A DNA stretch of 64,000 bases, from contig OZ024742.1 in assembly GCA_964016885.1 (NCBI GenBank), positions 91,202,001-91,266,000 of the forward strand, written 5' to 3'. The stretch comes from Eledone cirrhosa (lineage: Eukaryota). Position 1 is the first letter of the stretch. Each line of letters starts with the position of its first letter. The translations under genes and the position numbers were made by a program. The notes beneath the pieces were generated by a model, which saw only the letters and a list, made by a program, of their open reading frames with translations, ran no database searches and was not told the origin of the DNA. Positions 11,350 through 21,697 of this stretch are shown here, piece after piece.

Positions 11350-14300
11350 ATTAAGTTAAAGATGTACATCCATATATGTATACTGAAATACTAGTATGTA
11401 TATGAATACACACACGTATACATATGTAGATGTACCAAGTTTTTTCACTGGTCACTTTACTGTGAATGGCCAGCTATTCTGTATGTAAACACACAGACAA
11501 ACCGGTTTTTAGAGTCATACTGGTTTTTGAGGAAACACCTTTCCTCTATTCTCCAGAAAGCCAGACAAGGAATATTGAACTAGTTTCGTTGTTGTTACAA
11601 CTCATCAGCAATATTTACCTATCTTCCGGCCTCTCTAGAGAATCGTAAAAGCACATATCGTTATATGCTTTTTCTATGAAAATTAGTAGTGGGCAGACTA
11701 ATTTGCATAGAGTGTGAGTAAGTACCGGTTCAACGGAGACGATAAAAACAAATAACGAAACGAAATTAAACTTCGTTTCGTTTGTAACTCACTTTTGTAT
11801 GACTGACGCTTAAACAATTAAGTTAAAGATGTACATCCATATATGTATACTGAAATACTAGTATGTATATGAATACACACACGTATACATATGTAGATGT
11901 ACCAAGTTTTTTCACTGGTCACTTTACTGTGAATGGCCAGCTATTCTGTATGTAAACACACAGACAAACCGGTTTTTAGAGTCATACTGGTTTTTGAGGA
12001 AACACCTTTCCTCTATTCTCCAGAAAGCCAGACAAGGAATATTGAACTAGTTTCGTTGTTGTTACAACTCATCAGCAATATTTACCTATCTTCCGGCCTC
12101 TCTAGAGAATCGTAAAAGCACATATCGTTATATGCTTTTTCTATGAAAATTAGTAGTGGGCAGACTAATTTGCATAGAGTGTGAGTAAGTACCGGTTCAA
12201 CGGAGACGATAAAAACAAATAACGAAACGAAATTAAACTTCGTTTCGTTTGTAACTCACTTTTGTATGACTGACGCTTAAACAATTAAGTTAAAGATGTA
12301 CATCCATATATGTATACTGAAATACTAGTATGTATATGAATACACACACGTATACATATGTAGATGTACCAAGTTTTTTCACTGGTCACTTTACTGTGAA
12401 TGGCCAGCTATTCTGTATGTAAACACACAGACAAACCGGTTTTTAGAGTCATACTGGTTTTTGAGGAAACACCTTTCCTCTATTCTCCAGAAAGCCAGAC
12501 AAGGAATATTGAACTAGTTTCGTTGTTGTTACAACTCATCAGCAATATTTACCTATCTTCCGGCCTCTCTAGAGAATCGTAAAAGCACATATCGTTATAT
12601 GCTTTTTCTATGAAAATTAGTAGTGGGCAGACTAATTTGCATAGAGTGTGAGTAAGTACCGGTTCAACGGAGACGATAAAAACAAATAACGAAACGAAAT
12701 TAAACTTCGTTTCGTTTGTAACTCACTTTTGTATGACTGACGCTTAAACAATTAAGTTAAAGATGTACATCCATATATGTATACTGAAATACTAGTATGT
12801 ATATGAATACACACACGTATACATATGTAGATGTACCAAGTTTTTTCACTGGTCACTTTACTGTGAATGGCCAGCTATTCTGTATGTAAACACACAGACA
12901 AACCGGTTTTTAGAGTCATACTGGTTTTTGAGGAAACACCTTTCCTCTATTCTCCAGAAAGCCAGACAAGGAATATTGAACTAGTTTCGTTGTTGTTACA
13001 ACTCATCAGCAATATTTACCTATCTTCCGGCCTCTCTAGAGAATCGTAAAAGCACATATCGTTATATGCTTTTTCTATGAAAATTAGTAGTGGGCAGACT
13101 AATTTGCATAGAGTGTGAGTAAGTACCGGTTCAACGGAGACGATAAAAACAAATAACGAAACGAAATTAAACTTCGTTTCGTTTGTAACTCACTTTTGTA
13201 TGACTGACGCTTAAACAATTAAGTTAAAGATGTACATCCATATATGTATACTGAAATACTAGTATGTATATGAATACACACACGTATACATATGTAGATG
13301 TACCAAGTTTTTTCACTGGTCACTTTACTGTGAATGGCCAGCTATTCTGTATGTAAACACACAGACAAACCGGTTTTTAGAGTCATACTGGTTTTTGAGG
13401 AAACACCTTTCCTCTATTCTCCAGAAAGCCAGACAAGGAATATTGAACTAGTTTCGTTGTTGTTACAACTCATCAGCAATATTTACCTATCTTCCGGCCT
13501 CTCTAGAGAATCGTAAAAGCACATATCGTTATATGCTTTTTCTATGAAAATTAGTAGTGGGCAGACTAATTTGCATAGAGTGTGAGTAAGTACCGGTTCA
13601 ACGGAGACGATAAAAACAAATAACGAAACGAAATTAAACTTCGTTTCGTTTGTAACTCACTTTTGTATGACTGACGCTTAAACAATTAAGTTAAAGATGT
13701 ACATCCATATATGTATACTGAAATACTAGTATGTATATGAATACACACACGTATACATATGTAGATGTACCAAGTTTTTTCACTGGTCACTTTACTGTGA
13801 ATGGCCAGCTATTCTGTATGTAAACACACAGACAAACCGGTTTTTAGAGTCATACTGGTTTTTGAGGAAACACCTTTCCTCTATTCTCCAGAAAGCCAGA
13901 CAAGGAATATTGAACTAGTTTCGTTGTTGTTACAACTCATCAGCAATATTTACCTATCTTCCGGCCTCTCTAGAGAATCGTAAAAGCACATATCGTTATA
14001 TGCTTTTTCTATGAAAATTAGTAGTGGGCAGACTAATTTGCATAGAGTGTGAGTAAGTACCGGTTCAACGGAGACGATAAAAACAAATAACGAAACGAAA
14101 TTAAACTTCGTTTCGTTTGTAACTCACTTTTGTATGACTGACGCTTAAACAATTAAGTTAAAGATGTACATCCATATATGTATACTGAAATACTAGTATG
14201 TATATGAATACACACACGTATACATATGTAGATGTACCAAGTTTTTTCACTGGTCACTTTACTGTGAATGGCCAGCTATTCTGTATGTAAACACACAGAC

Positions 14301-15004
14301 AAACCGGTTTTTAGAGTCATACTGGTTTTTGAGGAAACACCTTTCCTCTATTCTCCAGAAAGCCAGACAAGGAATATTGAACTAGTTTCGTTGTTGTTAC
14401 AACTCATCAGCAATATTTACCTATCTTCCGGCCTCTCTAGAGAATCGTAAAAGCACATATCGTTATATGCTTTTTCTATGAAAATTAGTAGTGGGCAGAC
14501 TAATTTGCATAGAGTGTGAGTAAGTACCGGTTCAACGGAGACGATAAAAACAAATAACGAAACGAAATTAAACTTCGTTTCGTTTGTAACTCACTTTTGT
14601 ATGACTGACGCTTAAACAATTAAGTTAAAGATGTACATCCATATATGTATACTGAAATACTAGTATGTATATGAATACACACACGTATACATATGTAGAT
14701 GTACCAAGTTTTTTCACTGGTCACTTTACTGTGAATGGCCAGCTATTCTGTATGTAAACACACAGACAAACCGGTTTTTAGAGTCATACTGGTTTTTGAG
14801 GAAACACCTTTCCTCTATTCTCCAGAAAGCCAGACAAGGAATATTGAACTAGTTTCGTTGTTGTTACAACTCATCAGCAATATTTACCTATCTTCCGGCC
14901 TCTCTAGAGAATCGTAAAAGCACATATCGTTATATGCTTTTTCTATGAAAATTAGTAGTGGGCAGACTAATTTGCATAGAGTGTGAGTAAGTACCGGTTC
15001 AACG
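11350..15004 (-). repeat. Tandem array A, left arm: about 7.8 copies of a 467-bp hammerhead-containing unit (retrozyme-like)
   Basis: Exact 467-bp period, also seen in the ORF track. Hammerheads on the minus strand at 11571-11615 and every +467 (8 copies). Confidence 0.95.
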
Positions 15005-15035
15005 TCTCCGTTGAACCGGTACTTACTCACACTCT

Positions 15036-15083
15036 ATGCAAATTAGTCTGCCCACTACTAATTTTCATAGAAAAAGCATATAA
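15036..15083 (+). promoter_or_regulatory. Putative snRNA-type promoter cassette in unit A (octamer, PSE-like block, TATA-like)
   Basis: ATGCAAAT at 15036-15043, taattttcata at 15059-15069, gcatataa at 15076-15083; same order and near-identical spacing in unit B. Confidence 0.5.
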
Positions 15084-15128
15084 CGATATGTGCTTTTACG
15101 ATTCTCTAGAGAGGCCGGAAGATAGGTA

Positions 15129-19394: not shown

Positions 19395-19443
19395 ATGCAA
19401 ATTAGGCTGCTCAGCCGTTAATTTTCATAAGGAAAGTATATAC
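19395..19443 (+). promoter_or_regulatory. Putative snRNA-type promoter cassette in unit B
   Basis: ATGCAAAT at 19395-19402, tcagccgttaattttcataagg PSE-like block, gtatata at 19436-19442. Confidence 0.5.
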
Positions 19444-19475
19444 TTTCGAACGTTCAACTATCTGGCAGATGGGTA

Positions 19476-19520
19476 AACGGTGCTGATGATAGCTAACAAG
19501 CTTGAAACTAGTACATCGTT
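19476..19520 (+). ncRNA. Minimal type I hammerhead ribozyme, unit B (representative of 5 copies)
   Basis: aacggtg-CTGATGA-T AGC taacaa GCT T-GAAA-C TA GTA-catcgtt; GUA triplet; U-U mismatch at the base of helix II. Confidence 0.8.
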
Positions 19521-21697
19521 CCTGTGTCAGTGTTGAACAAAAAGGTGACGTGGTTGCCTTAACACCGTATGGCATAAATTCAGGCTGTTCAGTTTGTTTA
19601 CAAACGAACAAAGTGACGTTAGCGCCGCTAAACTGATACGTGCATATATGTATGTGTACCTGTATGCATATGTATGTATATATGTATATATATATATATA
19701 TATGTGCATGCTACTGTACGTCTGTATACATATATGTATGTACGTATACATGCATACTTACATTTAAGTAAGTGCCATACTAAGAGTGAGAAATGAAATT
19801 TCGTTTTCATTTTGTTTCAATTTATCGTTTTCGGTATGCCTGACCGATTTAACTCACTCAATATGCAAATTAGGCTGCTCAGCCGTTAATTTTCATAAGG
19901 AAAGTATATACTTTCGAACGTTCAACTATCTGGCAGATGGGTAAACGGTGCTGATGATAGCTAACAAGCTTGAAACTAGTACATCGTTCCTGTGTCAGTG
20001 TTGAACAAAAAGGTGACGTGGTTGCCTTAACACCGTATGGCATAAATTCAGGCTGTTCAGTTTGTTTACAAACGAACAAAGTGACGTTAGCGCCGCTAAA
20101 CTGATACGTGCATATATGTATGTGTACCTGTATGCATATGTATGTATATATGTATATATATATATATATATGTGCATGCTACTGTACGTCTGTATACATA
20201 TATGTATGTACGTATACATGCATACTTACATTTAAGTAAGTGCCATACTAAGAGTGAGAAATGAAATTTCGTTTTCATTTTGTTTCAATTTATCGTTTTC
20301 GGTATGCCTGACCGATTTAACTCACTCAATATGCAAATTAGGCTGCTCAGCCGTTAATTTTCATAAGGAAAGTATATACTTTCGAACGTTCAACTATCTG
20401 GCAGATGGGTAAACGGTGCTGATGATAGCTAACAAGCTTGAAACTAGTACATCGTTCCTGTGTCAGTGTTGAACAAAAAGGTGACGTGGTTGCCTTAACA
20501 CCGTATGGCATAAATTCAGGCTGTTCAGTTTGTTTACAAACGAACAAAGTGACGTTAGCGCCGCTAAACTGATACGTGCATATATGTATGTGTACCTGTA
20601 TGCATATGTATGTATATATGTATATATATATATATATATGTGCATGCTACTGTACGTCTGTATACATATATGTATGTACGTATACATGCATACTTACATT
20701 TAAGTAAGTGCCATACTAAGAGTGAGAAATGAAATTTCGTTTTCATTTTGTTTCAATTTATCGTTTTCGGTATGCCTGACCGATTTAACTCACTCAATAT
20801 GCAAATTAGGCTGCTCAGCCGTTAATTTTCATAAGGAAAGTATATACTTTCGAACGTTCAACTATCTGGCAGATGGGTAAACGGTGCTGATGATAGCTAA
20901 CAAGCTTGAAACTAGTACATCGTTCCTGTGTCAGTGTTGAACAAAAAGGTGACGTGGTTGCCTTAACACCGTATGGCATAAATTCAGGCTGTTCAGTTTG
21001 TTTACAAACGAACAAAGTGACGTTAGCGCCGCTAAACTGATACGTGCATATATGTATGTGTACCTGTATGCATATGTATGTATATATGTATATATATATA
21101 TATATATGTGCATGCTACTGTACGTCTGTATACATATATGTATGTACGTATACATGCATACTTACATTTAAGTAAGTGCCATACTAAGAGTGAGAAATGA
21201 AATTTCGTTTTCATTTTGTTTCAATTTATCGTTTTCGGTATGCCTGACCGATTTAACTCACTCAATATGCAAATTAGGCTGCTCAGCCGTTAATTTTCAT
21301 AAGGAAAGTATATACTTTCGAACGTTCAACTATCTGGCAGATGGGTAAACGGTGCTGATGATAGCTAACAAGCTTGAAACTAGTACATCGTTCCTGTGTC
21401 AGTGTTGAACAAAAAGGTGACGTGGTTGCCTTAACACCGTATGGCATAAATTCAGGCTGTTCAGTTTGTTTACAAACGAACAAAGTGACGTTAGCGCCGC
21501 TAAACTGATACGTGCATATATGTATGTGTACCTGTATGCATATGTATGTATATATGTATATATATATATATATATGTGCATGCTACTGTACGTCTGTATA
21601 CATATATGTATGTACGTATACATGCATACTTACATTTAAGTAAGTGCCATACTAAGAGTGAGAAATGAAATTTCGTTTTCATTTTGTTTCAATTTAT

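Follow-up and report, generated by a model that had tools for sequence, protein, structure and literature searches.

The repeat units A and B of Eledone cirrhosa are two subfamilies of a non-autonomous, non-LTR retrozyme family, and it would seem likely that they are copied by the protein of a Penelope-like element (PLE) as hammerhead-bearing retroelements, in a cycle of six steps that is set out below. Both units occur as arrays in the window, the whole stretch of 64,000 nucleotides of contig OZ024742.1 that was analysed. From the sequence alone these had been read as two tandem arrays of homologous units; the repeats and the homology of A and B are borne out, the simple tandem arrangement is not, as both arrays are built head-to-head. 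Array A inverts at 15003-15004 and array B at 19095-19101, and therefore their 3' ends point outward into (TA)n. The arm ends of array B were analysed with the TA repeats masked, and the layout is as follows:

11131..11349, unstranded, (TA)n target to the left of array A
11350..15004, minus strand, left arm of array A, 7.8 units of 467 bp its 3' end, at site b (unit position 392), passing into (TA)n
15003..15004, unstranded, head-to-head junction of array A, where the arms overlap by 2 nt
15003..18271, plus strand, right arm of array A, 7.0 units that match the left arm exactly, ending 3' at site a (unit position 467)
15392..15401, plus strand, site b, the putative priming site (unit positions 390-399), a small hairpin that is homologous in A and B
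15402..15469, plus strand, the "tail" that separates site b from site a, first a conserved hairpin and then the sole T5 run of unit A, with site a at 15467-15469
18272..18847, unstranded, (TA)n target common to A and B
18848..19101, minus strand, inverted left arm of array B, 0.55 unit, ending near site a
19095..21697, plus strand, right arm of array B, 5.5 units of 468 bp with the 3' end at site a
21698..23097, unstranded, (TA)n target to the right of array B

The copies within an array had been thought identical, which is correct for array A (0 mismatches over both arms) and for the five full units of array B, but not at unit position 257, where B differs in its first partial copy and again in its inverted arm. 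The units have no credible coding capacity, as was supposed, with frames of at least 100 aa within the arrays confined to those that cross the B inversion or enter from the TA repeats. The monomer RNAs fold into highly self-paired structures (z = -9.2 and -8.2, with 0/100 shuffles in each case).

Each unit carries one hammerhead, and those used for reference here are:

15118..15189, plus strand, type I hammerhead of unit A, with its core at 15136 and a predicted cut after 15166, present in all 15 copies
core at 19483 with a predicted cut after 19513, plus strand, hammerhead of unit B in the right arm of array B

A pattern search recovered every hammerhead, triplet and cut site that the sequence-only reading had listed: unit A has 15 type I cores, 8 of them on the minus strand and 7 on the plus, and unit B has 5; the triplet is GUU in the former and GUA in the latter, and helix I measures 7 bp. 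The Rfam check that it had suggested was run, and the HH9 model matches the 15 unit A copies at 37.7 bits (E 1.3e-6), which is below its gathering score of 52; at the gathering score there was no match in either array, and among the 150 of 316 Rfam matches listed there was no HH9 match to unit B. Low-scoring Rfam miRNA matches were discarded as hairpin and TA artefacts. In an alignment of 20 of the approximately 65 distinct variants the core is invariant (CUGANGA, GAAA and NUH, with three helices and helix I open) and the triplet is GUU, GUC or GUA. Helices I and II covary, with 87.9% of cells paired compared to 77.0% when shuffled (0/500), a figure that is inflated by relatedness as the covariation is driven largely by the split between A and B; 8/17 pairs have changes on both sides. 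Genome-wide there are 23,278 exact cores against 0 for the reversed pattern, which excludes a chance origin and upholds the idea of a dispersed family as opposed to a single-locus satellite. The motif had been described as minimal, instead it reads as a canonical type I hammerhead with a weak, axolotl-like helix III that is predicted to self-cleave.

The family is dispersed at high copy number, with thousands of loci present as monomers and multimers. Its units are noncoding, a few hundred bp long, and have no LTR build in a search that covered features other than the PBS and PPT. The strongest regularity lies in how the copies end. In 54/56 scorable two-armed loci one arm has its end at site a and its partner at site b, 60-75 nt upstream, and the combination of two b ends never occurs; array B of the window is one of the two exceptions. 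Likewise a position-ordered list of head-to-head pairs has a plus b ends in 38/39, and the two sites alternate between left and right arms. About 110 loci were examined and they contain 65 head-to-head pairs, with no adjacent tail-to-tail pair among those listed. Both flanks are TA-periodic in 50 of the 65 two-armed loci, and target-site duplications of 12-14 bp, above the 4 bp that those of non-LTR retrozymes exceed, are found in all 5 loci with informative flanks, the remaining 60 being uninformative and mostly pure TA. One fixed end at a and another at b together amount to the "tail" signature of PLEs, and the build of the insertions as a whole, with an inverted 5'-truncated copy, a one-sided tail and a TA target, looks to be that of a PLE.

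The window itself contains such an element:

7195..9510, minus strand, truncated copy of a young autonomous PLE with a reverse transcriptase and, at the C terminus, a GIY-YIG domain, a candidate trans-acting partner

This PLE lies head-to-head in (TA)n, just one of its arms bears a tail (of 44 nt), and it hence has the same two-end pattern as the retrozyme. The named relatives of its protein are entries labelled as clam symbionts, a hint of mollusc DNA, and the protein has no match to a solved structure. The earlier proposal that PLEs mobilise the retrozyme thus gains structural support from the a plus b ends and from a neighbour that is built alike; support from homology was not forthcoming, as five copies of the local PLE family have no non-repeat match to A or B among the matches listed. 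Among those matches a neighbouring hammerhead element also has no homology to the local PLE, and no autonomous PLE homologous to A or B was found, one PLE family having been examined in full.

The cycle that we favour would begin as the arrays are transcribed, in hammerhead sense and across more than one unit, either from outside promoters or by a leaky Pol III that starts at an internal U6-type promoter. The hammerheads, probably acting as dimers, would then cut the RNA into 467-nt monomers, and helix I would keep the ends of each together in a circle, covalent or nicked. In the third step a PLE endonuclease/reverse transcriptase would make staggered cuts, about 12-13 nt apart, in the two strands of (TA)n, and one DNA end would be primed at site a of the RNA and the other at site b; the enzyme is taken to be a PLE because of the match to PLE anatomy, the end pattern itself being observed. 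Each primer would be extended repeatedly round the monomer, with an occasional jump at the cut to another monomer, the two cDNAs would be joined at random points to give a head-to-head pair of multimers, and finally the arrays may be lengthened or homogenised at the DNA level. A nicked monomer held by helix I, combined with template jumping, fits equally well as a covalent circle.

That the family moves through RNA, as had been claimed, is evident from ADAR-type A>G clusters in some of the genomic copies, which imply an RNA template. In the copy L042 there are 43 A>G changes among 102 A, distributed as 42/68 after A or U and 1/34 after C or G. A triple A>G pattern has 10 matches genome-wide and its T>C mirror has 0. 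In the youngest A clade the ratio of A>G to T>C at the level of the template is 11:1 (p 0.007), an excess that neither the A3 clade (11:8) nor B (2:1) shows, and a strand-asymmetric model is better than a symmetric one for A (2dlnL 17, 6 df) and is not favoured for B (2dlnL 2.3). Variants that are strictly private to one locus have ratios of 3:2 in A and 0:1 in B, which are not significant, with a filter that discards recurrent sites. The edited copies show that there has been past transcription on the hammerhead strand with read-through of more than one unit.

It could be argued that the PLE usually copies an uncut, linear read-through multimer that ends at the T-run of site a, in which case the hammerhead would be incidental or regulatory and no monomer would be recycled. 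We regard this as unlikely, despite several observations in its favour. The T5 run of unit A and the two T4 runs of B fall at site a and resemble a Pol III terminator, arm 5' ends ignore the cut with no excess there (0/86 in A and 1/44 in B), and an anole PLE in vitro is described as taking mainly unprocessed RNA as its template in the experiments drawn on here (PMC11167929). Furthermore, hyper-editing in the copy L256 crosses the cut site without a break and carries on into flanking repeats, and so uncut read-through RNA must have been copied too. If this were the rule edits should differ from unit to unit, whereas at locus L255 four A>G changes are present in all 5 covering units on both arms, and the triple A>G pattern is confined to 4 loci. 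Two edited tracts also stop at the cut (164/165) from opposite sides, that of L042 ending between 157 and 169 and that of L258 starting between 157 and 193. These tracts support cutting of the RNA in vivo, from two copies out of three heavily edited ones examined in a hunt that was not exhaustive. Moreover, A and B both retain the catalytic core, and the changes in its surroundings are compensatory.

L255 and the haplotypes shared between arms reflect one template re-used for both arms. Such a haplotype is common to both arms in 28/31 A loci (12 strictly nearest, 16 tied); the second arm of the same locus is nearest in only 5/13 B loci, a mismatch that on inspection is mostly due to single-unit mutations and a CpG hotspot. 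An improbable alternative is that RNA-derived insertions of just 1-2 units were expanded at the DNA level by unequal exchange or slippage, in the manner of a minisatellite. Alternating or nested variants in L029, L037, L055 and L058 would agree with this, as would one arm as long as 31 units, the longest found, and a CpG change that in array B of the window is common to all five full units and missing from the first partial copy. Expansion cannot, however, make the fixed a plus b ends, both arms are often long and identical (7.8 and 7.0 units in array A of the window, 3.8 and 3.6 in L033), and many arms are of 1.0-2.0 units with random 5' ends, which implies that the first copy was already longer than one unit. 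Dimer periodicities and the variants shared by sub-arrays in L029, L055, L058 and array B of the window do require that units were expanded at the DNA level or that templates were mixed. Some of the array length is of DNA-level origin, and expansion is likely a contributor to the long arrays and not their whole cause.

Mobilisation by an ordinary LINE through twin priming would be a very improbable route. LINE-like frames (RTE-, CR1- or Tx1-like) are abundant in the window, and twin priming also yields inverted arms with microhomology at the junction. It leaves a 3' end that is fixed and a second site that varies, whereas here both sites are fixed and swap sides; the arms are devoid of a poly(A) or repeat tail, and the two-end pattern is identical to that of the PLE in the window. 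The perfect 3.26-kb inverted arms of array A do look like a fold-back chimera, but as arms end at different sites fold-back cannot be their maker, and an assembly artefact or single-locus satellite, to which we give practically no credence, is refuted at the family level by the same ends at thousands of dispersed loci and by the unit with its 467-to-1 joint in contigs of 4/4 runs examined; the runs come from 4 studies, and one may be of the source sample.

The promoter-like element within the unit, as positioned in the first plus-strand A unit, consists of:

15036..15046, plus strand, octamer-containing 11-mer
15059..15083, plus strand, T-rich block and TATA-like motif, the block being an inverted octamer in degenerate form, which in RNA pairs with the 11-mer

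The octamer, the block downstream and the TATA-like motif were therefore all rightly noted, and the suggestion that they form an internal promoter holds in part. The 11-mer matches an element at -76 to -78 of host U6, U6atac and MRP genes, in 6/9 distinct U6 upstream sequences at three unlinked loci, in the top U6atac match (1/7 examined) and in MRP (1/1). It is missing upstream of U2 (0/7), U1 (0/11) and RNase P (0/1), and a promoter of the U1/U2 type was rejected on these counts. Against a promoter, the TATA-like motif follows the 11-mer by 42 nt in both A and B compared to 46-48 nt in the host genes, 4-6 nt closer than in U6, and the blocks also form RNA hairpins. If the promoter is of Pol III type 3 (U6-like), the start is predicted about 77 nt past the element, and from there to site a neither A nor B has a run of at least four T, A4+ runs being present, though numbers are small. 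It is possible, and we propose it tentatively, that the retrozyme is self-transcribing, with a U6-type Pol III promoter, hammerhead-cut monomers, and one dimeric PLE that acts on one monomer with two-site priming and jumps at the cut. Were this true, the ADAR-edited genomic copies would be a direct read-out of the life cycle of a retrozyme, and the PLE tail would be explained as obligatory two-site priming on a single RNA.

In the literature searched we found no cephalopod retrozyme, no two-site end rule for retrozymes and no edited retrozyme copies, records of which may be held in supplements, Repbase/Dfam or subscription journals; in the main text of an octopus repeat annotation (PMC13282606) the words "hammerhead" and "ribozyme" both occur 0 times. 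That a PLE reverse-transcribes RNA cut into units has been proposed before, and the copy ends and editing scars found here point to that route. The family makes this model testable, as it offers predictions at the level of the nucleotide (two initiation sites, cut site, start site and target) and a young intact PLE as a test partner. It addresses both how retrozymes are transcribed and which enzyme mobilises them, the rule of one end at a and one at b bears on the mechanism of PLE integration, and the edited copies are natural barcodes that can separate rolling-circle copying from DNA-level expansion without experiment.

As in the metazoan non-LTR retrozymes, in the account drawn on here (Cervera and de la Pena 2020, PMC7229834), there are noncoding tandem units with one type I hammerhead, low GC, extensive self-pairing and thousands of copies. 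The weak, palindromic helix III resembles that of axolotl HHR_Amex1, and unit B shares with HHR_Amex2 a U.U at the base of helix II (PMC7229834). The units here are slightly longer than the 150-450 bp given for metazoan retrozymes, and that same account has no counterpart of the head-to-head build, the two fixed 3' ends, the (TA)n targeting, the promoter-like element or the edited copies (PMC7229834). Metazoan retrozymes seem, in the sections of a review consulted, to be without promoters or any motif that names their mobiliser (PMC7761336).

With endonuclease-bearing PLEs, as far as the cited descriptions extend, the family shares an inverted 5'-truncated copy, partial tandems, a tail on one end, AT-rich or (TA)n targets and a hammerhead in the repeat (Craig 2021, PMC8557442; Frangieh 2024, PMC11167929). 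It differs from them in having no reading frame, in a hammerhead that is canonical and not minimal, and in a tail longer than the 30-40 nt of PLEs (PMC8557442, PMC11167929), which is described as the stretch between two start sites of reverse transcription (PMC11167929). The non-autonomous Chlamys PLEs such as MRC1 are similarly noncoding PLE passengers that are inserted head-to-tail in multiple copies, and share 3'-end sequence with autonomous families; no canonical hammerhead is reported for their PLE group in the part of that paper used here (PMC8557442).

Newt satellite 2 and the schistosome hammerhead satellite are likewise hammerhead tandem repeats with an internal promoter, of the snRNA-type Pol II kind in the newt and Pol III in the schistosome according to work cited in PMC2220036; the element here resembles the host Pol III type-3 promoters of U6, U6atac and MRP and not those of host U1/U2. 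Finally, Li, Clavereau and Pollet 2026 (10.64898/2026.07.22.740005) make the case for vertebrate retrozymes as PLE derivatives from co-occurrence and pLTR homology and suggest local amplification at the DNA level, with no mollusc covered in the portion drawn on. Their conclusion that retrozymes depend on PLEs is the same as ours, and is reached here from insertion anatomy and editing scars.

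A motif scan of the window bears out the type I hammerheads that the sequence-only reading had described, 15 in unit A (467 bp) and 5 in the homologous unit B (468 bp), together with their predicted cut positions, after 15166 (A) and after 19513 (B), and the copies of unit A show no differences across both arms, as had been claimed. The Rfam comparison proposed there matched HH9, but with scores under the gathering threshold. The tandem repeats are likewise present, but it had been left unstated that both arrays are inverted: array A runs from 7.8 units on the minus strand into 7.0 units on the plus strand, with a head-to-head joint at 15003-15004, and array B pairs 5.5 direct units with a short arm in inverted orientation, in a window of the animal's 3.0-Gb assembly that is densely filled by retroelement frames and tracts of (TA)n. 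The catalytic core is unchanged in 20 of 20 aligned hammerhead variants, and 8 of 17 helix pairs are altered on both sides, a count to be read against a control inflated by relatedness. Monomers of A and B taken from cut to cut have a common branched predicted fold with the ends joined via helix I (z -9.2 and -8.2), within which a long-range pair covaries among older B members.

The anatomy of the insertions is highly regular. In a head-to-head pair two inverted arms, each one oriented run of units, have their 3' ends outward, and 65 such pairs were found among ~110 retrieved loci (36 A-like, 24 B-like, 33 position-ordered on C1 and 17 via an edited query); 9 have an unassignable end, leaving 56 scorable. 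One arm ends at the unit end (site a) and the other further upstream (site b, at 390-399 in A and about 409 in B) in 54 of the 56, the remaining 2, including array B of the window, being a+a, with b+b found in none of the 56. Genome-wide the family A end patterns number 2,265 a-ends and 1,344 b-ends, and when 100 listed a-ends and 57 of the 100 listed b-ends were compared over a common 118 Mb, 38 of 39 head-to-head neighbours were a+b against 46% expected under independence, this position-ordered set having a few loci in common with the ~110. In 50 of the 65 pairs TA periodicity marks both flanks, duplications of 12-14 bp occur at 5 loci, those with informative flanks, and the 5' ends of the arms are spread out without enrichment at the hammerhead cut. 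These insertions match the anatomy of Penelope-like elements (PLEs) as described in PMC8557442, namely a truncated copy in inverted orientation, a tail confined to one end and microsatellite targets. According to PMC11167929 the PLE tail in vitro is what lies between one RT start site and a second; both DNA strands are nicked by the protein, which also extends them.

A PLE at 7195-9510 on the minus strand is built like the A/B insertions, its two 3' ends being separated by 44 nt, which gives a 44-nt tail. Its family (loci L210-L220 and L241-L245) is a young one in which open 784-aa frames are numerous among 142 scored matches, and as its protein combines an RT, a CxxxxCxxC linker and, at the C terminus, GIY-YIG, it is Neptune- or Nematis-like as these are defined in PMC8557442. 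Its named relatives are clam-associated database entries. Among the matches listed there is neither recognisable sequence homology to A or B nor a canonical hammerhead in the PLE termini, and for lack of such homology this PLE is no more than a candidate partner of A/B. At L241+L210 an additional reading region lies upstream of the 784-aa frame. A second, distant PLE-like family, 27% identical to the local PLE across 173 aa, is another candidate partner, and a third hammerhead element is also present:

34232-35599, minus strand, fragment of the second PLE-like family
38171-39013, plus strand, fragment of the second PLE-like family
60989-62589, minus strand, fragment of the second PLE-like family
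63310-63735, plus strand, fragment of the second PLE-like family
9934-11131, third hammerhead element, head-to-head in (TA)n, cores at 10025 (minus) and 10957 (plus)

The third element has a longer helix II, carries a ~90-nt extension in the right arm only and is unrelated in sequence to A/B as far as compared. A further, fourth family of hammerheads, in which helix II is short and the cut site is UC, is dispersed near TA-rich flanks and was seen beside several loci and downstream of L212. Between 7195 and 23097 four separate PLE-type insertions lie in series with (TA)n bounding each, which suggests that each enlarges the target for the next. LINE-like frames occur at 26370-31433, 42638-46264 and 49206-52499, which we take from their motifs to be RTE-like, CR1/L2-like and Tx1-like, and one RTE-like copy is interrupted by a (TA)n tract.

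Evidence for an RNA intermediate comes from genomic copies that carry clusters of A>G changes. At locus L042, 43 of 102 A are changed to G within 322 nt of the hammerhead strand, with no other change there; 42 of 68 A following A or U are affected and 1 of 34 following C or G, the neighbour preference of ADAR. A triple A>G pattern has 10 matches at four loci and its T>C mirror none. In the 33 youngest A loci the variants common to all units of a locus include 11 A>G and 1 T>C (p 0.007), a bias that is absent from the A3 clade (11:8), from unit B (2:1) and from a stricter count of private variants only. Furthermore, four A>G changes at L255 are repeated in all five covering units of both arms, and edit clusters at L257 and L180 are common to both arms. 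The simplest reading is that a single edited monomer was copied repeatedly from two primers; the shared edits could instead have been inherited from a source array absent from the assembly.

The limits of the edited tracts bear on cutting in vivo. At L042 the last edit of the tract is at unit position 157, with none among the 225 A that follow (95% boundary 157-169), and the L258 tract begins at 193 after 71 unedited A (boundary 157-193), so that the predicted cut at 164/165 falls within both windows, which span ~3% and ~8% of the unit respectively. Such boundaries would arise if RT crosses from one cut monomer onto another or, alternatively, if unlike monomers are ligated. Against this, at L256 (G000:C28:60889700-60891900) editing continues across the cut into flanking repeats, hence uncut transcripts are copied as well; for an anole PLE in vitro, PMC11167929 describes a preference for uncut RNA. 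Edited tracts bounded at the cut in two of three copies are suggestive of cutting in vivo, not proof of it, and covalent circles and nicked monomers shut by helix I fit equally well. The (TA)n flanking L256 also appears to be A>G-converted for ~900 nt per side, and the mixed TA/TG microsatellites of this genome may in part be retro-copied, edited (TA)n.

The sequence-only reading had also placed a promoter within the unit. An octamer-containing 11-mer, identical in A and B and nearly unvarying in 95 units, is found at -76 to -78 in 6 of the 9 distinct host U6 upstream sequences, in the best U6atac match (1 of 7 retrieved) and in MRP, and is missing upstream of 7 U2, 11 U1 and 1 RNase P sequences. 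From the predicted start to site a the unit contains no T4 run. But the TATA-like motif sits 42 nt after the 11-mer against 46-48; the block downstream of the 11-mer is variable in old B copies, and both it and the 11-mer lie within predicted RNA hairpins. From motifs of this kind we judge the case for a functional internal Pol III promoter to be evenly balanced. Retention of the promoter in the RNA demands that the transcript read through site a, whichever polymerase is used, and read-through is evidenced by the L042 edited tract. Across the host's U1, U2, U6, U6atac, MRP and RNase P loci (L061-L108 and L246-L254) an octamer-like 11-mer marks the Pol III genes at -77, U1 and U2 have a distinct 5-mer near -57, and the RNase P RNA gene has a U1/U2-type motif, which suggests that it is transcribed by Pol II.

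A and B arrays proved to be dispersed through the genome, as had been anticipated, with ~36 matching loci for unit A among 39 candidates scored of 107 and ~28 for unit B among 40 scored of 111. Exact hammerhead cores number 23,278 for a pattern spanning A and B (0 for a control pattern), and the promoter-like block has 17,665 matches. The unit and its end-to-start joint are covered by contigs from all four public runs examined, which represent four studies and four organism labels, one possibly being the source sample. Variants alternate along the array at three loci (L029, L055 and L058) and a CpG change is restricted to the window's five full B units. Both are marks of later expansion or conversion, or of mixed templates, and very long arms, the longest noted having 31 units, probably owe their length in part to such DNA-level expansion or conversion, or to mixed templates.

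On the testable criteria the A/B family behaves as a metazoan non-LTR retrozyme, with putative self-cleavage and circular RNA. Our literature searches brought up no cephalopod family of this kind, two-site end rule for retrozymes or edited retrozyme copy, each of which supplements, Repbase/Dfam or subscription papers may hold. A 2020 review describes such elements as seeming to have neither a promoter nor a motif that identifies the mobiliser (PMC7761336). The novelty of A/B is its mechanistic record, the class itself being already known from coral, mussel and axolotl. The one weak palindromic stem that forms helix III of A/B is also seen in axolotl HHR_Amex1 and the U.U of the unit B hammerhead in HHR_Amex2, two ribozymes for which PMC7229834 describes efficient cleavage only as dimers.
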